Source: an uncultured Nitrososphaerota archaeon
Lineage (GTDB): Archaea > Korarchaeota > Korarchaeia > Korarchaeales > Korarchaeaceae
Reading direction: 5' to 3'
NCBI GenBank assembly: GCA_964480775.1
Contig: CAYZRF010000022.1
Span: forward strand, 1 to 31,585
Length of the DNA: 31,585 nt
Of this stretch, positions 3,245 to 30,754 are shown piece by piece; within the stretch, counting starts at the first letter, position 1; each line of letters opens with the position of its first letter. The position numbers and the translations under genes are program-made. The notes under the pieces are model-generated. The model ran no database searches. It was given only the letters and a program-made list of their open reading frames with translations, and was not told the DNA's origin.

Positions 3245-4210
3245 CTAAGCTCCTCTCCTCCTTCCTTTAACATTAACAAACCAATAAAATGTCTCTTTCA
3301 ACCCATCTTCTATTCTAAAGGTTGGAGAGTAGCCCAAAATCTCTCTAGCTAAGCTAATATCAGCAACGCTGTGCATGACTTCTCCCTTCAATAGTGGGAT
3401 GTATTTGAAACCAGCTCTATGACCAACCATCTCGGAGATTTTTTCAGCTAACTCATTTATCGTTATAGCCTTACCAGTCCCAACGTTTAGAACCTTTCCT
3501 ATCGCTTCCTCCTTCAAAGAAGCTAGTAGGTTGGCCCGGGCGACATCCTTAACGAATACGAAGTCCCTGGTCTGCTTACCATCTCCTCTTATTGTTAGAG
3601 GCTGTCCCTGTAAGGCCTGTCTCATGAATATGGAGATCACCCCACTATAATTTCCGCCAGCCTGTCTGGGACCATATACATTGAAATACCTCAAGCAAAC
3701 TGTCTTGAGTCCATAACTTTCGTAAAAAGCCCTGCAGTAAGACTCTGCAGCCAGTTTCGAGGCAGCGTATGGAGAAAGGGGGTCAAGCTCACTTTTCTCA
3801 TTGATTGGAAGAGATGTAGGGTTGCCATAAACAGCACAAGAGGATGCGTAAACGAACCTCTCCACATTGGAGCTTAGTGCGGCCTCCAGCAAGTTTATCG
3901 TCCCGTTAACATTCACATCATTAGTGAGATCTGGTTTTTCTATAGATAAGGGAACCGAAACCACAGCAGCTTGATGAAAAATGAAATCTGCTTCCTTGAC
4001 GAACCTCTTAACGAGCTCCTTGTCCCTAATGTCTCCTTCGATAACTTTTAGCTTGGAGTCTTCGAGAAAGGCCTTCAAGTTATCTAGGCTACCAGTGAAG
4101 AAGTTGTCGATGACTACAACCTGCTCTACTTCCTTTTCACTCAATAAGAGTTCTACTACGTGGCTACCTATAAAGCCAGCCCCCCCAGAAACCAGAACTT
4201 TTCCAAACAT
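3245..4210 (-). CDS. NAD-dependent sugar-nucleotide epimerase/dehydratase (extended SDR; WbpP/GalE/PelX-like UDP-hexose or UDP-HexNAc 4-epimerase)
   Basis: With the start at ATG 4210 the N-terminus is MFGKVLVSGGAGFIGSH (Rossmann GxxGxxG). Also present: catalytic YAASK, SSCAVYG and LRYFNVYGPRQ. The gene begins 11 nt after the stop of the upstream membrane-protein gene, consistent with one operon. Confidence 0.85.
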   Translation of the reverse strand: MFGKVLVSGGAGFIGSHVVELLLSEKEVEQVVVIDNFFTGSLDNLKAFLEDSKLKVIEGDIRDKELVKRFVKEADFIFHQAAVVSVPLSIEKPDLTNDVNVNGTINLLEAALSSNVERFVYASSCAVYGNPTSLPINEKSELDPLSPYAASKLAAESYCRAFYESYGLKTVCLRYFNVYGPRQAGGNYSGVISIFMRQALQGQPLTIRGDGKQTRDFVFVKDVARANLLASLKEEAIGKVLNVGTGKAITINELAEKISEMVGHRAGFKYIPLLKGEVMHSVADISLAREILGYSPTFRIEDGLKETFYWFVNVKGRRRGA

Positions 4211-4221
4211 TAAGGCATCAC

Positions 4222-5766
4222 CTAAAAAGCCGTGTAATAATAATAAGCTATCCTTTTCAAGCTTCTGAGTATTTGAAGGGTAGAGATGGCTCCTGAAACT
4301 AAACATCCAAAAAGATAGCCTAAAGAGACGTAATATATTCCATAGCTATGAGAGAGCAGGAGGCTGAGGATCAGGTTTAGAATCAAGCCCAAGGATAGCG
4401 AATAGATCATGGGCTTTGGTCTATAGAGATAGAAGGATATGAGGGAGTTTATCAGCACAAGTGTAAGAAGAATATTTCCAATTCCAGCTGCTATCAAGAC
4501 TAGGATGGAGTTCTCAGGAATTTTCCAAAGTATTCTCCCTTCTATTGAGAGGAAATAGACCAAGAGTAAAATGAGAATGCCTACTACAGTTAGAGATAGA
4601 ACAACCTTTCTGTAAAAGGACACAAGAAGCTCACCATATTCGGAGCGATCCTTAATCTTAGCCTTACCTCCTTTCTCTATGAGCCTGTATAGCTTAACCA
4701 AGTAATAATGAATGAGTCCAAAAAGAGGAGGAAGTATCAAAAGAGCCAAGTTCTTTCCTGTCTCATAGTCTAAGTCCATTAGGAGAGGATTTCCAACTCT
4801 CGCCCAAACGATGAGCTGATCGACTGTAAGGAGGAGGAAGTAGAGGGTTGAGGCTATGAAGTATGGAATTCCTAGGAGGAGGGTTAGAGAGAGGCTCGGC
4901 AGCCTTACCACAGTCTCTTCGCTCACCGCCTTGAGGAGAGTTAGCCTCATGTATATGTAAACGAAGATATAAATCAGGCTTGCTAGAATTCCAAAGAAAA
5001 TCCCATACATGTGGGCCCTCACGAATTCTAAGGAACTTTCGTATAAGGCAACGTTAACTACGAAAAGAGATAGGATAAAAATTAAGAATAGAGAAATGTA
5101 CTTTTTTAGAGTATAGAGGGGAGCTGTTGCTAACCAGAGCACGGAGAGGGCTGCAAAATAGATCAGCCCTAAGGAAGTCAGATCTTGAGAGAAAGCCCAG
5201 GAGAGAAGGAAATAAAATAAGATACCAGATAAAAGGACAGCAGATGTTCCAATCAGATAGTAAAGGGTTAAAAACTTTAAAGCCACACCGTAAGCCAATT
5301 GGTAGAAGTAAAAGAGAACCTTTCTCATGAAAACTGATTGTATCCCCGAGGTGGTAAGGAGGCTAGCTATAAGAGAAAGACCTATAACAGTAGCGATCCT
5401 TATATCCGCAGTAACTATGGAATAGAGAGAGATCCCAGTTAAGGAAAAGGAGATGGTGGACAGCAGCCATGGTGAGCCTGAAAGCAAGCCCAAGAGAAAG
5501 AGGAGGGCTCCTTCCTTCATTCTCTCAATGAGAGATTTCTTTTCCTCACCCACAGCCTCTTCTCTAGATTTATAGTAATCTATTAGCTCTATAACTGCCT
5601 TGGACAGAGAGAAAACATCTTCAAACCCATAGCTCCTAGCTATCTCTTGGGTAACACCAAGGGACTCGAGTATAGCTGCAACCTGCATGTAATCCTTAAC
5701 GTCAGCTTCTATCTCCAAAACAGCCATGGCCAAACTGTCAAGTTCTGAGAATATTTCTACGGTCAT
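4222..5766 (-). CDS. polytopic membrane protein, PelG-like (putative polysaccharide export/synthase subunit) with an extra N-terminal soluble domain of about 85 aa
   Basis: 514 aa with about 12 or more hydrophobic helices after a soluble N-terminus. The segments SGSPWLLSTISFSL and VDQLIVWARVGNP resemble conserved PelG segments as I remember them. Its ATG overlaps the stop of the PelF-like gene (ATGA at 5763-5766). Confidence 0.55.
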   Translation of the reverse strand: MTVEIFSELDSLAMAVLEIEADVKDYMQVAAILESLGVTQEIARSYGFEDVFSLSKAVIELIDYYKSREEAVGEEKKSLIERMKEGALLFLLGLLSGSPWLLSTISFSLTGISLYSIVTADIRIATVIGLSLIASLLTTSGIQSVFMRKVLFYFYQLAYGVALKFLTLYYLIGTSAVLLSGILFYFLLSWAFSQDLTSLGLIYFAALSVLWLATAPLYTLKKYISLFLIFILSLFVVNVALYESSLEFVRAHMYGIFFGILASLIYIFVYIYMRLTLLKAVSEETVVRLPSLSLTLLLGIPYFIASTLYFLLLTVDQLIVWARVGNPLLMDLDYETGKNLALLILPPLFGLIHYYLVKLYRLIEKGGKAKIKDRSEYGELLVSFYRKVVLSLTVVGILILLLVYFLSIEGRILWKIPENSILVLIAAGIGNILLTLVLINSLISFYLYRPKPMIYSLSLGLILNLILSLLLSHSYGIYYVSLGYLFGCLVSGAISTLQILRSLKRIAYYYYTAF

Positions 5767-7220
5767 TTCGTTACCTCCTCAATCTTCTTTTCAGATAGTA
5801 GCTCTACATATGAGCGCAAGTAGTCCGCCAGAAATCTTTCTTCGGAGTATAACCTTAGAGCCTTCTCTCTTGCCTTCTTACCGAAATCATCTCTCATCTC
5901 ATCGTTGAGAAGGGCTTCTACGATAGCCTTACCAAGTTCTTTTGGCTGTCTAGGAGGAACGACTATGCCGCAGCCTTCTAGAGCTTCTCTAACCCCTCCC
6001 ACGTCAGTAGCTACGACGAGGCGACCGCAGGCCATCGCTTCAACCACAGCGTAAGGAAATCCCTCAGATATACTCGGCAGGGCAACCACATCAGCTCTAT
6101 TGTATTCAATCTCTGGCTGGTTGGTCGGGCCCATAAAGAGAAATGAGTTTTCCAAACCCAGCTCTTTCACCTTTCTGACACAGGCTGCGTAGTATTTCTT
6201 GTCGACTATTGGACCAAAGACTTGGCACACAGCATTCTTAACCTCCTCTCTCACGTGGCTGAAGGCTTCGACCATGTCGATTATCCCTTTGAGCTTGTCA
6301 ACCCTTGCCATGAGGACTATTCTCTTCATATCCCTCTCTTTCTGGATAAGAAGGGGTCTGAACCTGTCTACATCTATTCCGTTGTATATCACTTCTATTT
6401 TTTCTTGCTTAATACCGAACTCCCTCTCCCAGTTTACGTTAAAGCCGCAGACAGGGGAAATTTTGTCAGCATAGCTGTAGTTCGTCAACACTATTGCTCG
6501 AAAGAGATTTAGCCAAAAGATCTTAGCTGGAAAGCTCTCAACTAATCTTACAGTGTCGAGTACCCTCTCCCTAAAGTAGAGACCGTGTTCCGTCAAGAGG
6601 TAAGGGACATCTTCTTCGACCTTAGAGATAACTGCAGGGATCCCACACAGAGCAGCTGCCGAGGAGTGGTACACATCGCCTTCTGGAAACGGGAATATGA
6701 GTACCCTCAAGAAGTGCTGAAGAACCCTTGCAAGGTCTATTAGCTCAGATATCGTCATGTTGGAGTAGAGTTCATCCTCTCCAAGCTTTGATAGGTATGT
6801 TTTCCACAGAGCTTCGCTCTTAAAGGTCTTTTTGTAGTCGTGATCAGCGAAGAAATTTCGCATGTACCTAAGGGCTTCACCCATCCTTCTAGGATTCTTT
6901 CCACCTAGAAGAACCTCTTCAAGGAAATCCTTGAAGTTAGGGATGAACTCCTCTTCCACCTCGCTTGTTCCTGTTCTAATCATCTTTTTCAGAATTGAGA
7001 TGCATGATGGATTGAAGTGCTCACTAGGCTGTTCCTCTCCCCACAGAGAAATAGTTACTAGTCCCTTCACATTCTTAGGTAAATGATAAGAAATCCTAAA
7101 AAAGGGGCTAGGAACTATTGAGACAAGATAAAATTCTATATCTGGAAGCTTTGTGATCAAATTGTGCGTCCAAGTGCTCACCCCGCCCCTAAAATATGGA
7201 TATGTGCCCTCGGTAGTCAT
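5763..7220 (-). CDS. pelF: PelF-like glycosyltransferase (DUF3492-type N-terminal domain + GT4/GT-B catalytic domain)
   Basis: The N-terminus EGTYPYFRGGVSTWTHNLI matches the PelF/DUF3492 signature (EGxYPYxxGGVSxW). The C-terminal half has the GT4 motif LPSISEGFPYAVVEAMACG...TDVGGVRE. Confidence 0.8.
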   Translation of the reverse strand: MTTEGTYPYFRGGVSTWTHNLITKLPDIEFYLVSIVPSPFFRISYHLPKNVKGLVTISLWGEEQPSEHFNPSCISILKKMIRTGTSEVEEEFIPNFKDFLEEVLLGGKNPRRMGEALRYMRNFFADHDYKKTFKSEALWKTYLSKLGEDELYSNMTISELIDLARVLQHFLRVLIFPFPEGDVYHSSAAALCGIPAVISKVEEDVPYLLTEHGLYFRERVLDTVRLVESFPAKIFWLNLFRAIVLTNYSYADKISPVCGFNVNWEREFGIKQEKIEVIYNGIDVDRFRPLLIQKERDMKRIVLMARVDKLKGIIDMVEAFSHVREEVKNAVCQVFGPIVDKKYYAACVRKVKELGLENSFLFMGPTNQPEIEYNRADVVALPSISEGFPYAVVEAMACGRLVVATDVGGVREALEGCGIVVPPRQPKELGKAIVEALLNDEMRDDFGKKAREKALRLYSEERFLADYLRSYVELLSEKKIEEVTK

Positions 7221-7253
7221 TACTACTCTAAGCAGATTAACCCCCCCAAGGCT

Positions 7254-7706
7254 TCACTTCTCTTCTTTCTCCCCTTTTTCTTTTTTCTTATAAGGTCTAA
7301 ACAACGGTACTCCTGCTCCAAGATCATTAGATGGTTCTAATTTATCTTCCATCGAATTTGCCGTTTCTAAGGCCTTTTCAGCCTTCTCAAACTTATTCGC
7401 CCACATGTAGCACTTTGATGCCATTTTATACCCCCAAATTGAAGATCTCGGAGATATAGAAGCTGTAGAATCAGCATATTCCACGTAGGAGTCTCCAGCT
7501 AAATCGAACAATGTTATGGCCGCTTTTTTGTCTCCTGTCTTCAACGCACACTTTGCAGCCGATAAAAGGGAGAGAGCAGCCATTGCAATGTTCTTCTTTT
7601 CTTTCTGGATTTCAGCTTCCTTGAGATAATGCTCAAGAGCCTCCTGATATTTTTCCTCTTTTTCAAGTTTAGTCCCCAAAGACCAGTGGCTTACCTCTGA
7701 CATCAT
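7254..7706 (-). CDS. TPR/SNAP-like helical-repeat protein with a Lys/Glu-rich C-terminal tail
   Basis: Repeated A/Y/L helix-pair pattern (YQEALEHYLKEAE, AALSLLSAAKCALKTGDKKAAITLFDLAGDSYVEYA, ASKCYMWANKFEKAEKALE) and a tail of KKKEKGEKEEK. GGAGGAG lies about 8 nt upstream. This is the first gene of the minus-strand operon. Confidence 0.5.
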   Translation of the reverse strand: MMSEVSHWSLGTKLEKEEKYQEALEHYLKEAEIQKEKKNIAMAALSLLSAAKCALKTGDKKAAITLFDLAGDSYVEYADSTASISPRSSIWGYKMASKCYMWANKFEKAEKALETANSMEDKLEPSNDLGAGVPLFRPYKKKEKGEKEEK

Positions 7707-7794
7707 GCTTGTGTCTCCTCCTTAACAGTAATAATTACTATTTAGAAATAAAGAACACTTATTAAGTCTCCCCTTAATTGAGATTTGAGCCAGA
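7707..7794. promoter_or_regulatory. divergent intergenic promoter region between the Pel-like operon (-) and the KaiC/GTPase/Roadblock operon (+)
   Basis: 88-bp AT-rich spacer with TATA-like CTATTTAGAAATAAAG (ATTT..AAAT inverted arms) and CTTATTAAG. Genes diverge from both ends. Confidence 0.35.
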
Positions 7795-8520
7795 ATGGTC
7801 CAAAAAGGTCATGTTATTGAAAGAGTCAGGACTGGAATAGAAGGTTTCGACGAGCTAATAGAAGGAGGTTTACCCCAAGGAAGGATCTATCTAGTAGCAG
7901 GCGAGACAGGAACATGCAAGACCACTTTTGCCCTTCAATTTCTCTACATGGGAGCTCGTTACTTCGGTGAGAGCGGTATCTTTGTCACCATAGACGAGAA
8001 GCCCGAAAGGATAATAGAGGATGCCGCTTCGATAGGCTGGGACCTAGAGGAGCTTATTGATAAGAACAAACTTCTTATCCTTGAGATATCCCCTTTCTTC
8101 TCAGATATAAAGGAAATAAGTGCCAAACGAATAGCTGAGGAACTAAAGCTTCACATCAACCAGTTAAACGCAAAGAGGCTTGCAATAGATCCAATAGCTC
8201 CTCTTGTCTTAAAAGAGGATGAGGGCGGAGTTACGACTCAGAACATCATAAGGATGTACCTTAAGGAACTCTTCGACTCCTTGGAGGAACTAAAGATTAC
8301 AACCGTTGCCACTTCGGAGATCCCAACCGGAACAAATATGCTGAGCAGGTACGGGGTCGAGGAGTTCTTGGCATCAGGGGTTATTGTACTTCGCTTGATA
8401 AGAGAGGGCACAACATTCTCTAGGGAGTTATATGTAAGGAAAATGAGAGGAGTTAACCACAGCTTGAACGCATATCCTTTCGTGATACAGCGTGGGAGAG
8501 GAATAGTTATATCTATTTGA
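7795..8520 (+). CDS. single-domain KaiC/RecA-superfamily ATPase (KaiC-like, signalling type)
   Basis: RVRTGIEGFDELIEGGLPQGRIYLVAGETGTCKTTFALQF (Walker A with Cys in place of the usual Gly before Lys), VTIDE (catalytic Glu), RLAIDPI (Walker B) and YVRKMRGVNH. About 240 aa, typical of archaeal KaiC-like paralogs. Confidence 0.85.
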   Translation: MVQKGHVIERVRTGIEGFDELIEGGLPQGRIYLVAGETGTCKTTFALQFLYMGARYFGESGIFVTIDEKPERIIEDAASIGWDLEELIDKNKLLILEISPFFSDIKEISAKRIAEELKLHINQLNAKRLAIDPIAPLVLKEDEGGVTTQNIIRMYLKELFDSLEELKITTVATSEIPTGTNMLSRYGVEEFLASGVIVLRLIREGTTFSRELYVRKMRGVNHSLNAYPFVIQRGRGIVISI

Positions 8521-8535
8521 AGGATCTTATCATAG

Positions 8536-9708
8536 ATGAAACGACCGACAGGAATTCCTGTGCTAGATGACATGTTGAGAGGAGGACTTGAAGATGGTTC
8601 TACCACTATTCTCTATCATTCTCCTTTCATAAACGGAGCCTTATTTGCCTATCACATCTGTCACCACAGACTAAAGGTAGGAGATCCTGTCGTCTACTTC
8701 ACCAACACAAAGAGGATACTGGCTATCATAGAGGATGCAGAGAGATTTAGTTGGGATATGAGGAATTATCGCGAGAGGGGGAAGCTTTCCTTCATAGATG
8801 CTTATACTCCTTTTATGGGTCTCTCTGGGGAAGGAAGATATGCTGTTTCAGATCCAACTAGTCCTGAAGAGATAACTGCAGTATTAGCTAAGGCCCTAGA
8901 AGAGCAGGAGAGCGGGTCCCTCCTGGTAATAGACTCCCTATCGACCGCCTTAGATCAATGTGGCTTAAAAATACTTGATAAGCTCGAGGATTGGAGAAGG
9001 CTTGTTACTCTTTATGACGCTTCCCTTCTTTGCATCTTCGCTGATTGGGGATACGAAGCCGAGGTCAGGAGAAGAATTGAGGAATTTTTTGAGAACATGA
9101 TAGAGCTAACTTCGATAGAAAGGAACGTCATAATCGGAGACATTTTCACCGTTAGAAAAGTCGACGGCCAAGTAGTAAGAAGCAAAAGGGTCCCCTTCAA
9201 ACTGATAAAACCAGGAGGGGTGCGCATTTACATTCCAAAGATCCTCGTTACAGGACCTTTTCATGCTGGGAAAACTTCTGTCGTTCACGCTTTATCTACA
9301 AGGGCCGTAAGCGTGGATAGGGAATCAACAACCGTTGCTCTAGACTTTGGACATGTGGAATTTGAGGGATTTTTCGCTGATCTTTTTGGCACCACCGGGC
9401 AGCAACGGTTCGATCCAATACTTGAGCAACTTGGAGGTGAAGCTATTGCCGTGATCCTTGTTGTGGACAGTACCATGCCAGAGACCTTCCCTAGAGCCGT
9501 AGAGATGCTTAAGAAGGCTAGAGCATATGGTCTTCCTTGTATAGTGTTTGCTAACAAACAAGATTTGCCTAATGCTCTAAGCCCTGAAGAGGTCCGAGCG
9601 AAACTAGGATTGGGGGAGGATGTACCTGTTGTAGGAACTGTTGCTACCCAAAAGGAGGGGGTCAGGGAGGGACTAAGAATTCTGTTAGATACGATTTTTA
9701 GAGGGTGA
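8536..9708 (+). CDS. fusion protein: Walker-A-degenerate KaiC-like domain (aa 1-233) + MglA/CvnD-type small GTPase domain (aa ~234-390)
   Basis: The N-terminal part has the KaiC-like scaffold (IPVLDDMLRGGLEDGSTTILY, LLVIDSLSTAL), but HSPFINGA replaces the P-loop. The C-terminal part has G1 GPFHAGKT (9253-9276), G2 TTVALDFG, G3 LFGTTGQQRF, G4 NKQD and a G5-like TVATQ. It starts 15 nt after the preceding gene. Confidence 0.85.
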   Translation: MKRPTGIPVLDDMLRGGLEDGSTTILYHSPFINGALFAYHICHHRLKVGDPVVYFTNTKRILAIIEDAERFSWDMRNYRERGKLSFIDAYTPFMGLSGEGRYAVSDPTSPEEITAVLAKALEEQESGSLLVIDSLSTALDQCGLKILDKLEDWRRLVTLYDASLLCIFADWGYEAEVRRRIEEFFENMIELTSIERNVIIGDIFTVRKVDGQVVRSKRVPFKLIKPGGVRIYIPKILVTGPFHAGKTSVVHALSTRAVSVDRESTTVALDFGHVEFEGFFADLFGTTGQQRFDPILEQLGGEAIAVILVVDSTMPETFPRAVEMLKKARAYGLPCIVFANKQDLPNALSPEEVRAKLGLGEDVPVVGTVATQKEGVREGLRILLDTIFRG

Positions 9709-9712
9709 TCTT

Positions 9713-10093
9713 GTGGAAGAAAAAATAACCCTTAGGGATATGTTAAAAAAGGTTCTTTTGGACCTGAACTCTACTGGAGAGGTTTATGCATCTGCTATTG
9801 TGTCGAGAAATGGGCTTCTTATGGCTTGTGAAATGCCTAGTGATGTAGACTCGAGAACATTTGCAGCCATGACTGCTACGATGGTTGGAGCGGCAGAAAC
9901 TGCTTTCTCGGAACTAAAGAAAGGAGTGGCAGAGAGAGTTATAGTAGAGGGGCAAGAGGCCAAGATCATAGCAATGGGGGCTGGAAAAAAGGCTCTCTTA
10001 GTCACTATGTCTGATCCTAGAGCAAATCTTGGATTAATACTCCTTGAAATGGAGAAGGCTAGCGAAAAAATAAAGAAACTCTTGGGAAGGTGA
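9713..10093 (+). CDS. Roadblock/LC7 (MglB-like) domain protein
   Basis: 126 aa with the Robl/LC7 pattern (VYASAIVSRNGLLMACEMPSDVDSRTFAAMTATMVGAAE...ALLVTMSDPRANLGLI). The GTG start lies 4 nt after the GTPase-fusion stop. Confidence 0.85.
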   Translation: MEEKITLRDMLKKVLLDLNSTGEVYASAIVSRNGLLMACEMPSDVDSRTFAAMTATMVGAAETAFSELKKGVAERVIVEGQEAKIIAMGAGKKALLVTMSDPRANLGLILLEMEKASEKIKKLLGR

Positions 10094-10152
10094 TGTAACT
10101 GATTAGCTTCTCCAGCCTACTGGATTTTCTTATAATAATCCTATCTCTGATA

Positions 10153-10158: not shown

Positions 10159-10171
10159 CGAGCTTTTGTTT

Positions 10172-10423
10172 ATGCTAAAAGTATCAATTAACGAGAAAAG
10201 GTTTAGAGCAGCAACAAGTTACATATTTCTTAGCTATGGGCCGTTTAGAACCGCTTTTATTCTATTAGTACTAAACGGGATGGTTTCTTTCTTTTCTAAA
10301 CTTCTCATCTCTTTTGGAATGGAAGAACACAGTTTGTTGGGAATTGTGGTGTGTTATGCGCTTCTCGTGTTAAGTTTGATGCTTATGCTCACGGTACTTT
10401 TTGGGAGAACCAGAAAGGAATAG
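10172..10423 (+). CDS. possible small membrane protein (2 TM)
   Basis: ATG at 10172 (the track uses TTG at 10166). Two hydrophobic stretches (FRTAFILLVLNGMVSFF, LLGIVVCYALLVLSLMLMLTVLF). It lies directly after an oligo-T tract, has no obvious promoter and matches no family, so the call is weak. Confidence 0.3.
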   Translation: MLKVSINEKRFRAATSYIFLSYGPFRTAFILLVLNGMVSFFSKLLISFGMEEHSLLGIVVCYALLVLSLMLMLTVLFGRTRKE

Positions 10424-10445: not shown

Positions 10446-11153
10446 CTAGTCGATCTTATATCTAAACCAGTTAGTAGTAAGAGAACTTCCTCTCCTCGCT
10501 AGATATCTAACGTAATCTTCTCCACCCTCCTTTTTCATCTCAAGCACTCCATCAACCAATGTCATTAGGATGTGCTCTACCTCCTGTGGGTGAGTCTCCT
10601 TATCAAATAGGAAAAGACCGTTGCTTTGACTTGCTCGCAATCTTCCAAAAAGAGCGTGTAGAAACCTAGAGACTGTTTCAGGTTTGTTGTAAGTGAATAA
10701 GCTCGTTAACGTATCGAATACAAACCTAACTGGCCTATGTCTCATCCAAAACTCCTTTAGAAGGTCCCTCACTATGACGTTATATCCGGATAGATCCATT
10801 ATGCTAGAAGCCCTTTTGATGTACGGGATCTCCTCTGTCTCCAGACCAACTGTTTTGGAATACATGTCAATGAATACAATCCGCTCTTCCTTTTTCGCTT
10901 CCTCTATCCTCATGTTAAGTTCAGAAAACTCTCTTTCCTGCTCCTCCGCCGTTCTATCAGTTGTGGTGAATATACAAGCATCACCTTCAAGTATTCCAAC
11001 GTGTGTAAACTTTTTAGAGAAAATCTCCTTGCTAGAGATTGGAGGACCCAAGAGTAGAACGTTAATTCCTCTTGGCAGGCCCCCTCCTATCGCCTCATCA
11101 AGAACAGGAAATCCTATTGGCACCTTACTGTTCTGCCTTAATTCTTCTACCAC
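10446..11153 (-). CDS. KaiC-like domain protein with a degenerate Walker A (probable pseudo-ATPase)
   Basis: PIGFPVLDEAIGGGLPRGINVLLLGPPISSKEIF has the KaiC-like N-terminal signature, but GPPISSKE (11025-11048) replaces GxxGxGKT. FVFDTLTSL is Walker-B-like. GTG start. Confidence 0.75.
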   Translation of the reverse strand: MVEELRQNSKVPIGFPVLDEAIGGGLPRGINVLLLGPPISSKEIFSKKFTHVGILEGDACIFTTTDRTAEEQEREFSELNMRIEEAKKEERIVFIDMYSKTVGLETEEIPYIKRASSIMDLSGYNVIVRDLLKEFWMRHRPVRFVFDTLTSLFTYNKPETVSRFLHALFGRLRASQSNGLFLFDKETHPQEVEHILMTLVDGVLEMKKEGGEDYVRYLARRGSSLTTNWFRYKID

Positions 11154-11247: not shown

Positions 11248-12696
11248 GTGTATTGTTTGAAGCCAAAAATCGTACTTATCGAGGAAGGAGGCTTCCCTGT
11301 TGACATCGGAGGGATCTCCACATGGGTTAGAGAGCTAATTGAAGGGTTAAAGGAATTTGAATTCACCATATTGACTATAACAACTCATGAGAAATCTGAT
11401 CTCATATTGCAAGTTCCTGAAGGAATTAAAGTAAGGATTCACATTTTGTTTAGCAGAAGATGGAAACATAAAGCCCATCCCGATACCTTTAAGGGTGTAA
11501 TAGACTGCCTTAAATTGTTCCTTTCTGGAGAGAGAGTGGGGATAGAAGAAATCGTTGAGTTAATGGCCAACTTGGATCCAATAAAGGTATTATGCTCTAG
11601 AGAATTCTGGGAAATGGCTAAAGAAGCTTACGAGGAGCTAAATCTCTACCAAGAGAGTTTTATAGGCTTCGCATACGAACTTGCATGTATATTTCGTCCT
11701 CTACTTGAAGTTCTCTTGCTAGGAACCGACCTGAAGGGGTTTGACATAGTTCACTCCACCAATGCGGGACTGGCGGGGCTGGCAGGGGCAGCTGCAAAAG
11801 TTAAGTGGGGTTATCCGTTAGTTCTGACAGAGCATGGCTCTTTCCTAAGAGAATTTGACATATGGCTGGAAAGGACGAGGAGAAAAAGGTGGTCAAGGGA
11901 ATTGCTCAAAAGAGTTATGAACTCGGTAGTAAGAACCAGCCATTCTTATGCTAATTCCATAGTCTCAGTCTCGGAGTCCATAAGAAAAGATCAACTAAAG
12001 ATAGGTGCCTCGGAAGAAAAGCTTCTTGTGATAAGGAACGGAGTAGATGCTTCAAAATTTGAGAGAGCTATCACTAATATAGATGTCGGTGCCGACGTCA
12101 GTGTTATGAATAGGAAAATAGGAAAAGATTATGGAGAAGTTCTCAGAGTTGTTACAGTATCGAGAGTGGACAAAGTGAAAGGTATAGATTTACTGGCGAG
12201 GGCTGCGGCTTTTGCGCTAAGTTCTGGGGTGAGATTAGTCTTCGAGGTGGTCGGGCCTATAACCGATAAGGAGTATTTGGAGGAAATTCAAGCTCTGACC
12301 AAAAGCCTAGGAATATCAAGAAATTTCAAGATAATTGGGGTAAGAGACGTTAAGAACGTGTTGGACAGGGCTGACATTTTCGTCCTTCCCAGTAGGTCGG
12401 AAGGAAGTCCCTTTGCCCTTTTGGAGGCTATGGCAGCAAGCCTTCCGATTATTGGAACCGGTGTAGGAGGAATTCCTGAGGTGTTGGGAGATGCTGGGAT
12501 CCTTGTTAAACCCGAACCCAAGGAACTCGCTTCAGTCATAGAAAAACTCGCAAAAGACGCTGAACTCAGGAGAAAGCTTGGAAAAGCAGCTAGAGAGAGG
12601 GTGATATCCAATTTCCCACTTGAGAAGATGATTGATGGTTATAGGAACCTTTACTTAAAGCTCATGGAGGAAAAACCATGGTATTCTTCGGTTTAG
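11248..12696 (+). CDS. second PelF-like glycosyltransferase (DUF3492-type N-terminus + GT4 domain)
   Basis: N-terminus IEEGGFPVDIGGISTWVRELIEGL. GT4 motif LPSRSEGSPFALLEAMAASLPIIGTGVGGIPE. GTG start at 11248, with TTG at 11257 as an alternative. Confidence 0.8.
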   Translation: MYCLKPKIVLIEEGGFPVDIGGISTWVRELIEGLKEFEFTILTITTHEKSDLILQVPEGIKVRIHILFSRRWKHKAHPDTFKGVIDCLKLFLSGERVGIEEIVELMANLDPIKVLCSREFWEMAKEAYEELNLYQESFIGFAYELACIFRPLLEVLLLGTDLKGFDIVHSTNAGLAGLAGAAAKVKWGYPLVLTEHGSFLREFDIWLERTRRKRWSRELLKRVMNSVVRTSHSYANSIVSVSESIRKDQLKIGASEEKLLVIRNGVDASKFERAITNIDVGADVSVMNRKIGKDYGEVLRVVTVSRVDKVKGIDLLARAAAFALSSGVRLVFEVVGPITDKEYLEEIQALTKSLGISRNFKIIGVRDVKNVLDRADIFVLPSRSEGSPFALLEAMAASLPIIGTGVGGIPEVLGDAGILVKPEPKELASVIEKLAKDAELRRKLGKAARERVISNFPLEKMIDGYRNLYLKLMEEKPWYSSV

Positions 12697-13301
12697 GAAT
12701 AGGAGAGGTCTTCTCTATAAGGAGAAAGAGAGGGTGGAAAAGCGGGCTGTACTTGCTTTTCGCCATTCTTCACTTAACTTCTTTTTTCTTCTTAGGAAAG
12801 ACCATAGAGGTAACCTCCAAGATTATCTTATCTATTGCCCTCACCTTAACTGGAATTTTGCTTTCGTCTTTTATAATAATTAGAAAGAAGCTAACTCGCC
12901 TCATTAAAGCTGGACTTAAGGAAATTGATTCTGTTGAAAGGGAGTTTAGCAGGACCTTGGTTGCTCTTGACATAGTTTCCATCGTTGCGTCCTTTCTCGT
13001 AGTAATGGTTCTGTATGGGAGAAAACTTGAAGTTTTCCTGTCGTTGAATATTCTACTACTCGTTTCTTCATTAAGTCGCATGTCATTACTTGTCCTCATA
13101 GGTTCTAAATGGCTACCCGTTCTTCCAACGGCCTTAGCAATTGAGGTGCTCTTTGGAGCAATGTCGCATAGTTTCTGGTCAATCCTAAGCTACATGACAA
13201 CTTCTACATTGATTCTAACTCTATCCATCTGGAGAACCTCTTCGTTCTCGAGAGAACCTGCATATCTCATCTTTAGATCGATGGTGGAAGAGAATTTCTA
13301 A
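12678..13301 (+). CDS. hypothetical membrane protein (about 6 TM), translationally coupled to the second PelF-like gene
   Basis: ATG 12678 overlaps the upstream gene by 19 nt. There are multiple hydrophobic helices (LYLLFAILHLTSFFFL, IILSIALTLTGILLSSFIII, LDIVSIVASFLVVMVLY, LLVSSLSRMSLLVLIG, and others). No family recognised. Confidence 0.55.
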   Translation: MVFFGLGIGEVFSIRRKRGWKSGLYLLFAILHLTSFFFLGKTIEVTSKIILSIALTLTGILLSSFIIIRKKLTRLIKAGLKEIDSVEREFSRTLVALDIVSIVASFLVVMVLYGRKLEVFLSLNILLLVSSLSRMSLLVLIGSKWLPVLPTALAIEVLFGAMSHSFWSILSYMTTSTLILTLSIWRTSSFSREPAYLIFRSMVEENF

Positions 13302-28534: not shown

Positions 28535-30754
28535 ATGCTTAATCGTTCTATTGTCGGAGCTGTAGTATTGCTTGTGTTAGCGACATCAGCTATATTATTT
28601 CTGAGAAATCCCTTTGTTAGAGAGCCTGATTCAGTTGAACCAGTTCCTCTCATGATGAAGAACCCAAAAGACTTTATTACTAAATTTTTTTCAACGGAAC
28701 GCATTAAGGTTCATCCTAGCATCCCAGAGTATGATTTACCACTTAGCCCGAAGGATATTTCAAACTTTGATCAGGTTACGAAGGTATTTCCTTTCAACTC
28801 TATTTCCAGAGAGAAGCTCCTGAAAAACGGGTTTTTGGTGGTAAATTGGCATGGAAATGACGTTATATTTGCATATAAATCCCTTAGTGAAAGCGGAATA
28901 CCAATATATGTGACCAGCGATTCTATGCTCCACCTGTATCATGTCCAGTTTGATCATTTATTAAGCGAAATAGAGGAAAACAGCCTATTTCCAATGCTTA
29001 CAGAACTAACAGAGGTCTTATTGAGGGAAAGCCAGAGGCAATACGACAATCTTGATGGTTCTCTGAAGGAAGCCGCGAGAAGAAATGTCGCGTACTTCTC
29101 AGTTGCCATGAAATTACTGGATGAATCTTACATACCACCGTCTTATGTTTCCAAAGAAGTTTCTGAGGAAATTAACCTGATAAAAGGACATCAGGGTTTC
29201 TTTAAGAGCCCGATATTTGGTTATGAGGAAGATTACAGCCAATACGTTCCTAGGGGACATTATACAAAGTCAGAAATCCTGAAAAAATACTTCAAGGCGA
29301 TGATGTGGTACGGCAGAATGGCCTTCTTAATAAAAGGAGGCAGGATAATTCCAGAGGAAGAAGCTAGAAGGTTGACTATTCAAGCTTCTCTGATCGTTGC
29401 AGCAATGCAGGTTGCTAAGAAAGAAAATATAAGTGGATCGGAAATATGGAGCGAAATTTACGCTGTCACTTCATTTTTCGTTGGATTTGTCGATGATCTC
29501 ACACCATATGAATATCTCCAAGCAATTAAGGAGGTTTTTGGCACTGAATTTGCGCCAATAAACCTTTCTGAAACAGTAATGTTGGACGAGCTTAGGAGAA
29601 AGCTACTTGAAATGAGAACTCCGTTAATCTTTTCTGGGACTGGAAACTGCTATGCTATGGAGCTCTCTCCCGAAGAGCTTGAGGAGTGTCTTAAGGAGAG
29701 CATGGGAATGAGGTTTATGGGTCAGCGCTTTGTTCCAGACTCTTACGTTTTTCAAAAGCTTGTTGCTCCTTCTGTTGGATCCTTTACAGGAGAAGGAAGC
29801 CCGTTTACTCTTGGTTACACTCCTTTGGGACCTACAAGGGTTTTCCCAAGGGGGCTGGATTTCATGGCCGTTCTCGGATCAGAAGAGGCTCTAAAGATCC
29901 TTCAAGGAGAGGGGGATGTGGATTACGAAAGATATATGGAAAATCTTGAGGAGCTGAGGGAGGAGTTCTCAGGTCTTAATGGGAGTGAATGGGGCAAGAA
30001 TCTCTACTGGGCTTGGATCTACACCTTGAAAGCCTTAATTGAGCCCAGAGGTGAGGGTTATCCCTCATACATGAGGACTCAGGCCTGGGAAAGAAGACAG
30101 TTGCACGCCGCCCTTGCCTCTTGGGCAGAACTTAGGCATGACACAATACTTTATACCAAGCAAAGCTACACTCCTCTTTTAACTTCTGCCCCAGTGCCCA
30201 TTCCAAATGTTACGGCGTACATTGAGCCAGTTCCTGAAGTTTACAACAGACTATCAAGCCTTGTTGAAATGACAAGAACTGGTCTAAAAGAGCTTGGATT
30301 CTTAAATCAAACCCAAGAAAAAGCGTTACTCCAGCTAAAGTACGTCTTAGATATGTCGATGGAGATATCAAAGAAGGAACTGGAAATGAAACAATTAAGC
30401 TCTGATGAAGTGATCTTCCTTGAGCAGTTTCCTGATATGCTAGAAATGATTGTAGAAGGTTTAGATGAAAGGAGCAAGAGTACAGTTCTAGTTGCAGATG
30501 TTCATACGGATCAAAACTCAAAGCTCGTTCTTGAGGAAGGCGTAGGAAACCTTGACTTGATTTTCGTCGTGGTTCCAACAGCAGAGGGATATCTCTTTGT
30601 GGCAGCTGGCCCATCCCTATCCTACTATGAGTTTAAGCAACCAATGGCTAATCGACTAACAGATGAGACTTGGAAGCAGATGCTAGAGATAAAACCTCCA
30701 AGCAGACCTAAGTGGATTTCCAGCTTCTTCGAATCCAGTCCTTTTGGCAGTTGA
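28535..30754 (+). CDS. large secreted or membrane-anchored protein, DUF3160-like
   Basis: N-terminal signal/anchor (IVGAVVLLVLATSAILFL). The length (739 aa) and the segment DYSQYVPRGHYTKSEILKKYFKAMMWYGRMAF match my recollection of the DUF3160 family. Confidence 0.6.
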   Translation: MLNRSIVGAVVLLVLATSAILFLRNPFVREPDSVEPVPLMMKNPKDFITKFFSTERIKVHPSIPEYDLPLSPKDISNFDQVTKVFPFNSISREKLLKNGFLVVNWHGNDVIFAYKSLSESGIPIYVTSDSMLHLYHVQFDHLLSEIEENSLFPMLTELTEVLLRESQRQYDNLDGSLKEAARRNVAYFSVAMKLLDESYIPPSYVSKEVSEEINLIKGHQGFFKSPIFGYEEDYSQYVPRGHYTKSEILKKYFKAMMWYGRMAFLIKGGRIIPEEEARRLTIQASLIVAAMQVAKKENISGSEIWSEIYAVTSFFVGFVDDLTPYEYLQAIKEVFGTEFAPINLSETVMLDELRRKLLEMRTPLIFSGTGNCYAMELSPEELEECLKESMGMRFMGQRFVPDSYVFQKLVAPSVGSFTGEGSPFTLGYTPLGPTRVFPRGLDFMAVLGSEEALKILQGEGDVDYERYMENLEELREEFSGLNGSEWGKNLYWAWIYTLKALIEPRGEGYPSYMRTQAWERRQLHAALASWAELRHDTILYTKQSYTPLLTSAPVPIPNVTAYIEPVPEVYNRLSSLVEMTRTGLKELGFLNQTQEKALLQLKYVLDMSMEISKKELEMKQLSSDEVIFLEQFPDMLEMIVEGLDERSKSTVLVADVHTDQNSKLVLEEGVGNLDLIFVVVPTAEGYLFVAAGPSLSYYEFKQPMANRLTDETWKQMLEIKPPSRPKWISSFFESSPFGS

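Follow-up and report, generated by a model that had tools for sequence, protein, structure and literature searches.

We describe a conserved archaeal gene cassette, probably devoted to signalling, that is built around the fusion of an inactivated KaiC (iKaiC) domain to a Ras-superfamily small GTPase (G) domain. The copy analyzed here lies on a contig of an uncultured Nitrososphaerota archaeon placed in the Korarchaeaceae (contig CAYZRF010000022.1, assembly GCA_964480775.1), the 31,585 nucleotides (nt) of which are referred to as the window. The fusion protein retains intact GTP-binding motifs and has lost its ATP site family-wide, and its gene is linked almost without exception to a Roadblock/LC7 gene and to further KaiC-family genes. 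The conserved unit has four parts, of which an ATP-competent KaiC is an optional member. An earlier note on this DNA, made from the sequence and its open reading frames (ORFs), had described a three-gene operon and had read it as a KaiC-gated Roadblock/GTPase switch of new wiring. Part of that interpretation holds, namely the parts list and the analogy with MglA and CvnD; the terms 'KaiC-gated' and 'new wiring' are overstated. We regard a functional GTPase-Roadblock-KaiC cassette as highly probable. With moderate confidence we further propose that the fusion, whose G domain is of the archaeal MglA group 4 type, the Roadblock protein and iKaiC, joined here by an active KaiC, form a conserved archaeal signalling cassette of soluble proteins whose most likely output in the window's clade is a Pel-type polysaccharide synthase.

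The ORFs at 7795-8520, 8536-9708 and 9713-10093 (+) are co-oriented and separated by 15 nt and then 4 nt, exactly as claimed from the ORF coordinates, and the domains assigned to them (KaiC, small GTPase and Roadblock) all score above the curated Pfam cut-offs in hidden Markov model (HMM) searches. Instead of ending with these three genes, the unit includes a DUF7504-type inactivated KaiC at 10446-11153 (-) that had been overlooked.

The G domain has the motif signature of MglA groups 2-5

The C-terminal half of the fusion protein (390 amino acids, aa) had been taken for a P-loop GTPase, and it scores as one. Residues 235-386 match the Arf/Ras small GTPases of Pfam (E = 1.3e-15; 57.8 bits against a cut-off of 22.3), and Pfam Arf, Ras and Roc as well as TIGR00231 are all above cut-off. 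The five motifs of the Ras superfamily are present as G1 GPFHAGKT, G2 STTVALDFGH, G3 FGTTGQQRFDP (without Asp), G4 NKQD and G5 TVA; TTVALDFG and LFGTTGQQRF, which had been quoted previously, can both be read in the sequence. G1-G5 are near-invariant in 43-49 homologs, the family consensus of G3 being FGTPGQERFDP. An AlphaFold2 (AF2) model of the G domain alone has a predicted local distance difference test score (pLDDT) of 88.7 and a predicted template modelling score (pTM) of 0.87.

MglA groups 2-5 have been defined by Thr-Thr in G2, with no group 1 Arg finger, and by GTPGQ in G3 without the Asp; CvnD belongs to group 2, and group 4 is archaeal (Wuichet and Sogaard-Andersen 2015, PMC4316618). 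The window protein, with TT and GTTGQ, falls within this definition, in agreement with the CvnD/MglA-like character that had been claimed for its G2 and G3 motifs. It is not a group 1 MglA. In a profile alignment to Myxococcus xanthus MglA, T265 occupies the position of the intrinsic Arg53 finger and the bacterial G1-G2 insertion is absent (8-residue gap), and G3 has GTTGQ rather than TVPGQ. Small single-domain MglA (150-240 aa) was rejected because the protein is a two-domain fusion. Membership of the Arf family was rejected as well, given that the G domain runs on directly from iKaiC, leaving no N-terminal amphipathic or myristoylated helix, and that G3 lacks Asp.

In a ranking by overall similarity, which is not a tree, Arf/Arl and Asgard ArfR stand closer to the G domain than bacterial MglA does. 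Arl1, Arl3 and Arf1 head a PDB profile search, and Foldseek searches with the model gave template modelling (TM) scores of 0.79-0.82 for Arl/Arf and 0.74 for Thermus thermophilus MglA. Profile comparison with hhalign scored 108 (probability 98.9) for Arf1 and 73 (probability 97.3) for MglA; the M. xanthus MglA sequence used was checked against PDB 6hjh. The leaning towards Arf/Arl fits the published remark that few prokaryotic proteins are as closely related to Arf, Sar and SR-beta as those of MglA group 4 (PMC4316618).

The N-terminal domain is an ancestrally inactivated KaiC

Residues 4-233 of the fusion match Pfam KaiC (E = 2.1e-20). The domain has a RecA/KaiC fold without a Walker A motif, of which Pro30 alone survives, and neither GK[ST] nor Walker A occurs in it across 43-117 homologs. 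Because the motif is lost in all of them, the inactivation is ancestral, and the earlier label 'pseudo-KaiC' suits both the window protein and its family. In the AF2 model of the whole fusion the pLDDT is 85.8 overall and about 90 or higher over the N-domain, which superimposes on PH0284 (2dr3) with a Foldseek TM score of 0.84 and a root-mean-square deviation of 2.6. Lys208 of an 'RKxR' finger motif, a trans-acting position, is invariant. Compared by hhalign, the domain resembles the DUF7504-type iKaiC partner (score 218) more closely than it does the active KaiC (121). Both this N-domain and the product of 10446-11153 combine a KaiC fold with a disrupted Walker A and are inactivated KaiCs in that sense; the iKaiC concept, which reportedly goes back to Makarova et al. 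2017, is cited in PMC5847659.

The partner proteins

The Roadblock assignment of the third ORF holds in profile search, Robl_LC7 scoring 54 bits against a cut-off of 23 (E = 1.3e-14). Its PDB matches are the archaeal Roadblock proteins 9jue, 7f8m and 7yh1 (E = 1.5e-15 to 1.6e-8), followed by MglB (E = 3e-5) and CvnB5 (3leq; E = 0.006). The closest of these, 9jue_D (E = 1.5e-15), is titled only 'Roadblock/LC7 domain protein'. The conserved 'srdGLl' appears as SRNGLL in the window, and GAAETA and LGL are kept. The protein has the fold of MglB and other Roadblock/LC7 proteins, and its gene adjoins that of a GTPase; it is not the Thermus MglB equivalog (NCBIfam model, 17 bits against 200). By analogy with MglB, it is likely a regulator of the G domain, acting as a GTPase-activating protein, a guanine nucleotide exchange factor or both.

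The first ORF encodes a complete RecA-like domain of the active KaiC type (PF06745, residues 11-239, E = 3.7e-67; 226.5 bits against 26.6). Of the sequences in the PDB it matches the CI domain of cyanobacterial KaiC best (E = 1e-57 to 9e-64). It is not a bona fide circadian KaiC, which has tandem CI and CII domains in about 500 aa; the window protein has one domain and 241 aa, and scores 167.7 against 546 with TIGR02655 and 203.5 against 408 with NF006799. None of the curated archaeal KaiC equivalog models of NCBIfam reaches its cut-off, and similarity to ArlH is weak. The P-loop reads GETGTCKT, with Cys41 (codon TGC, 7915-7917) where orthologs have Gly (consensus GE.GtgKTT). Cys41 is not a read error, since a close relative (locus L004, 89% identity) has it too. 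The catalytic 'TIDE', Walker B 'RLAIDPI' and 'RKMRG' are kept, and the catalytic motifs are strongly conserved in orthologs.

The remaining KaiC-family protein, at 10446-11153, matches Pfam KaiC (E = 2.9e-23) and DUF7504 (E = 6e-11). It is the fourth and most constant partner of the fusion, its type occurring in 32 of 36 loci in the census that follows.

Gene content is conserved while gene order is not

Six contexts from an exact look-up and 80 metagenomic loci from a metagenome scan with alignment were examined. All ORFs were scanned with HMMs made from the cassette's own components, and the fusion loci were reduced to 68 clusters at 90% identity. A locus counted as evaluable for Roadblock if 450 bp or more flanked the fusion on each side (48 loci) and for KaiC partners if the flank reached 1.5 kb or more (36 loci). 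A Roadblock gene directly adjoins the fusion on the same strand in 47/48 loci, downstream in 37 and upstream in 10, which bears out the GTPase-Roadblock pairing put forward earlier. In 34/36 loci another KaiC-family gene is found no more than about 3 kb away. These counts rule out chance adjacency of the cassette genes. The DUF7504/DUF7090-type iKaiC, with P-loop remnants GPPxSGK[EDKRH], is found within about 3 kb in the 32 loci given above, often flanking the fusion directly in the same operon. Active-type KaiC is present in 13 of the 36; most lineages have inactivated partners only. Gating by KaiC is thus not a general property of the cassette, and in the window the KaiC itself carries the P-loop Cys.

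Three arrangements recur. The order active KaiC, fusion, Roadblock, with an iKaiC nearby, is confined to the window's clade (9 loci), where 10-30 nt separate the KaiC gene from the fusion directly downstream. The order iKaiC, fusion, Roadblock is found in Methanosarcinales, Methanoperedens and others. In Methanobacterium the order is Roadblock, fusion and two successive KaiC-family genes with intact P-loops (GPPK[VT]GKS). Gene order is therefore reshuffled between lineages while the gene set persists. Two loci deserve separate mention. An Altiarchaeales contig (L008) has a weak DUF2226 protein after Roadblock (7643-8476). In L015 the active-type KaiC is split into two ORFs (4251-4972 and 6250-6966) and the Roadblock ORF, at 238 aa, is double the usual length; the cassette here may be a variant in decay or one that has undergone fusion.

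A large family with a partial literature record

Far from being a new wiring, the fusion represents a family that is old and widespread in archaea, and the window adds one further member to a large, long-deposited set. Two database searches returned 927 (E <= 1e-5) and 1,487 (E <= 1e-20) relatives, nearly all of 380-410 aa with KaiC and Arf/Ras domains, from sources that include Korarchaeota, Bathyarchaeota/Bathyarchaeia, Methanosarcinales, ANME-2, Methanoperedens, Altiarchaeales and cultured Methanobacterium. The G domain alone, compared with 1.84 billion representatives at 50% identity, gave 78 matches at E <= 1e-30. Fusions of 370-415 aa make up the majority of the best 150 representatives, and stand-alone archaeal GTPases (160-200 aa) surface only at 40-48% identity. 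An exact look-up of the window protein returned no entry. The nearest public relative is a metagenome-assembled genome (MAG) from the Guaymas Basin (Thermoproteota or Korarchaeota by source), with a fusion of 89% identity and identical gene order, and a genome-contig scan with a single-protein query matched only this near-identical MAG.

Full-text literature searches (KaiC with Roadblock, small GTPase or MglA; PelF/PelG in archaea) found no paper on the cassette and no experimental work on it. Makarova, Galperin and Koonin reportedly advanced in 2017 the hypothesis that KaiC-like and iKaiC proteins are signalling hubs, and may already describe this fusion architecture. Members had been tabulated by 2015 as 'Group 4 MglA' proteins of 385-401 aa, most of them beside MglB: Archaeoglobus veneficus Arcev_1631, Methanobacterium Metbo_1335, two Methanothermobacter species, Methanoregula Mboo_2067 and RC-I (PMC4316618, Table S2). 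That paper does not mention KaiC and found no conserved proteins near group 4 mglA. We confirmed the Methanobacterium Group 4 entries as KaiC::GTPase fusions; the Methanothermobacter entries, which include a 393-aa protein of Methanothermobacter thermautotrophicus delta-H beside MglB, are probable members from their length and MglB adjacency.

A Pel-like neighbourhood as a clue to output

Divergently transcribed from the KaiC operon are genes for a TPR protein and PelF-like and PelG-like proteins (Table 1). This neighbourhood is the best clue to the output of the cassette and had been overlooked. The defining PelF (DUF3492 plus GT4) and PelG components of Pel are both present in the window. 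The trio stands beside the cassette in at least eight loci (L004, L011, L012, L014, L016, L018, L021 and, rearranged, L027), with the same divergent arrangement kept in all of these except L027; the 88 bp between the two transcription units are, to judge from the sequence, probably a bidirectional promoter region. TPR homologs of 38-45% identity occupy the same position in seven loci besides the window. PelF homologs (47-52% identity) adjoin the cassette in L011, L012, L014, L016, L018, L021 and L027, and PelG homologs (35-39%) in L011, L012, L018, L021 and L027. Pfam scans of the window gave no match to PelD (the cyclic di-GMP, c-di-GMP, receptor), PelA, PelB or PelC, and the TPR protein, having no transmembrane segments, is not a PelE-type membrane TPR. 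Most archaea are not known to have c-di-GMP signalling. Since PelD is absent and that signal is generally wanting, the cassette may control the Pel-type polysaccharide synthase in the window's clade, a suggestion we advance tentatively.

Table 1. Positions of the cassette and adjacent features in the window
Feature	Position	Strand	Details
PelG-like polytopic membrane protein	4222..5766	-	PelG 36.7 bits, cut-off 29; 12 hydrophobic segments
PelF-like glycosyltransferase (DUF3492 + GT4/GT1)	5763..7220	-	DUF3492 E = 1e-44; Glycos_transf_1 E = 1.8e-31
Soluble TPR/SNAP-like protein	7254..7706	-	150 aa; Pfam TPR_2/SNAP; no transmembrane segments
Divergent intergenic region between TPR/PelF/PelG genes and KaiC operon	7707..7794		88 bp, AT-rich
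Single-domain active-type KaiC, like CI domain of cyanobacterial KaiC	7795..8520	+	241 aa; Pfam KaiC
Fusion, N-terminal iKaiC domain	8536..9231	+	Pfam KaiC; AF2 fold
Fusion, C-terminal Ras-superfamily G domain	9232..9708	+	Pfam Arf; TIGR00231; AF2
Roadblock/LC7 (MglB-like) protein	9713..10093	+	126 aa; GTG start; Pfam Robl_LC7
Small predicted membrane protein between Roadblock and iKaiC genes	10166..10423	+	2 hydrophobic segments
Stand-alone iKaiC paralog, DUF7504/DUF7090 type	10446..11153	-	P-loop remnant GPPISSKE

The minus-strand block 3245-7706 also contains a short-chain dehydrogenase/reductase (SDR) epimerase, with PelG, the PelF-like protein and TPR. A second PelF-like glycosyltransferase and a 207-aa membrane protein with 4 hydrophobic segments are encoded at 11248-13301 (+). 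Both of these plus-strand products, and the epimerase as well, recur in close relatives only.

Elsewhere the neighbours are different. A survey of 150 neighbour ORFs, drawn from about 28 diverse loci, showed PAS (6), V4R (6), PelF-like (4), PelG (3) and TPR (3) as the recurrent families. In Bathyarchaeia a kinase-less multi-PAS protein directly precedes iKaiC and KaiC (L006, 3659-6034; L020, 4405-5967), and this PAS-iKaiC-KaiC set stands upstream or downstream of the fusion and Roadblock genes. A FIST sensor protein follows Roadblock in L046 (6640-8001). V4R (Bet3/TRAPPC3-like) proteins do so in several loci, such as L010 (7566-8135), and the combination of GTPase, Roadblock and V4R recalls TRAPP. 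A defence system was considered and rejected, PADLOC giving no match.

Proposed mechanism and alternatives

In the mechanism that we propose, the KaiC-fold domains would assemble together into a hetero-oligomer which, like KaiC and PH0284, would probably be a hexameric ring. This idea stems from the hexameric state of those two proteins and from the common mixing of paralogous RecA-fold subunits, and we give it an even chance. Such a ring would display tethered G domains, and the invariant trans-acting Lys208 of the fusion could complete the ATP site of a neighbouring subunit. A Roadblock dimer would bind the GTP form of the G domain and set its rate of hydrolysis or exchange, in the way that MglB acts on MglA. 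An ATP-competent KaiC, in the cassettes that have one, may bias the G-domain cycle through its bound nucleotide or its phosphorylation. Inputs would depend on lineage, coming from PAS-only, FIST or V4R proteins, and the output in the window's clade would be on/off or spatial control of the Pel-type exopolysaccharide synthase, in the regulatory place of PelD. In its most specific form, the proposal is a single hetero-hexameric KaiC ring with tethered G domains and a Roadblock dimer as their reader, which would work as a coupled ATP/GTP switch or timer and replace c-di-GMP and PelD as the gate of Pel in Korarchaeia and related Thermoproteota; we consider this full version unlikely.

Several observations weigh against the proposed mechanism. 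The pTM of the fusion model is 0.60, so the relative placement of its two domains is undefined, and the putative hetero-oligomer is proposed from paralogy and co-occurrence. The Cys in the P-loop of the window's KaiC may weaken ATP binding. The window Roadblock protein has Asn-Gly where its family has a conserved Asp-Gly. L008 and L032 have no KaiC partner nearby, and L065/L066 (fusion 4995-6155) have an iKaiC without an adjacent Roadblock, the sole such evaluable loci. The Pel link is restricted to one clade; cassettes of other lineages are embedded in housekeeping genes (ribosomal and tRNA-synthetase), and Pel output is therefore not universal. The literature searches also found no biochemical or genetic study of any family member.

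The strongest alternative is a plain switch of the MglA/MglB type, in which the KaiC parts are an inert scaffold for oligomerization or localization with no ATP gating, and the active KaiC is an independent, ArlH-like regulator of the surface-polymer machinery. Inactivated KaiCs are indeed the ancestral and commonest partners, with the active type in the minority of loci counted above; the P-loop of the window's KaiC is non-canonical; and conservation is far higher in the G domain and Roadblock than in the KaiC-fold parts. An inert scaffold is harder to square with an active KaiC that lies 10-30 nt from the fusion in all nine loci of the window's clade with its catalytic motifs strongly conserved, or with the intact P-loops of the DUF7504-like partners in the third type of lineage. 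The invariant trans-acting Lys likewise suggests that the dead domain still serves the nucleotide site of a neighbour. We judge this alternative to have perhaps one chance in a few, that is, to be doubtful.

Less probable still is that the cassette forms a structural or energizing subunit of a Pel-like machinery, its KaiC ring serving PelF/PelG as motor or platform as ArlH serves ArlI. Archaeal type IV pilus and archaellum loci are reported to include KaiC-family ATPases and Roadblock proteins repeatedly as accessories (PMC4858521), the divergent TPR/PelF/PelG linkage is conserved at 35-52% identity, and there is the weak ArlH similarity in NCBIfam. Against this, most copies have no ATP-competent subunit, and most lineages' cassettes have no Pel genes nearby, being accompanied by ribosomal or tRNA-synthetase genes or PAS, FIST or V4R sensors instead; we think this improbable. 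An Arf-like, proto-eukaryotic membrane-recruitment GTPase with a Roadblock exchange platform of the Ragulator/TRAPP kind, functionally unrelated to MglA and conservons, would suit the Arf/Arl and Asgard ArfR leaning of the G domain in sequence and fold and the V4R genes after Roadblock in several loci, but is very improbable for a protein with the TT/GTxGQ signature of MglA groups 2-5, no G3 Asp, iKaiC in place of the N-terminal amphipathic helix and no predicted membrane-binding element.

Comparison with known systems

Set beside the MglA/MglB and conservon systems described so far, the family is a variant of its own. MglA/MglB of M. xanthus and T. thermophilus, and archaeal Group 4, likewise pair a GTPase with an Asp-less G3 with a Roadblock-fold partner encoded beside it, whereas the window G domain is fused to an inactivated KaiC and accompanied by further KaiC-family proteins. 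The Streptomyces conservon is also a multi-gene signalling cassette. Its Roadblock protein is CvnB, and its GTPase, CvnD, is of the MglA group 2 type and has the G2/G3 signature in common with the fusion. The conservon differs in that the archaeal cassette has KaiC-fold proteins instead and its G domain is fused, not free. The earlier analogy between the KaiC domains and the conservon sensor is loose. Among the window ORFs of at least 110 aa that were scanned there is neither a CvnA-type histidine kinase (HisKA, HATPase) nor CvnC (DUF742), and the sensors of relatives are PAS-only, FIST or V4R proteins; the Roadblock and GTPase side of the comparison stands.

Archaeal KaiC-like and iKaiC proteins such as ArlH, PH0284 and PH0186 are likewise single-domain, active or inactivated, and associated with variable input and output partners. 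What sets the window apart from them is an output-like element consisting of a small GTPase with a Roadblock partner. With the bacterial Pel system (PelDEFG core) the window has in common a PelF-like DUF3492 plus GT4 protein, a PelG-like protein, a TPR protein and a nearby SDR epimerase. Its TPR protein is small and soluble, in contrast to the membrane-anchored PelE; PelD, PelA, PelB and PelC were not found in it; and the KaiC/GTPase/Roadblock cassette appears to stand where a regulator would be expected.

The cassette unites three protein families, archaeal small GTPases, Roadblock proteins and KaiC paralogs, whose roles bear on the origin of eukaryotic G-protein regulation through Roadblock/longin platforms and on archaeal signalling without abundant two-component or c-di-GMP systems. 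One clade offers a concrete candidate output in the Pel-like polysaccharide synthase, and the occurrence of the family in cultured Methanobacterium opens it to biochemical testing. A coupled ATP/GTP two-nucleotide switch or timer, if real, would have no described counterpart. To specialists in archaeal comparative genomics the cassette will come as no great surprise; what it offers is a concrete, testable handle on the joint role of the three families.

Other features of the window

The small predicted membrane protein downstream of Roadblock is a weak candidate for membership of the module. A homolog was found in the close relative L004 only (116 aa, 60% identity, starting 4 nt past Roadblock), and the window copy lacks the N-terminal part, where there are stop codons. 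A hairpin with a T-run at 10111-10124, just past the Roadblock stop, was no better than chance in a sigma-70/terminator scan, which is uninformative for an archaeon. Scans of the window for tRNA genes and against Rfam were both empty. By its gene content (HMG-CoA reductase, archaeal LeuRS and TruD) the window is archaeal, and it also encodes, unrelated to the cassette, a 739-aa DUF3160 protein at 28535-30754 (Pfam E = 7e-205). A radical-SAM gene (787-1831) is spread over three frames (787-1197, 1179-1511 and 1490-1831) with about 90% identity to the intact homolog in L004; it is either a pseudogene or a product of indel errors in the window sequence.

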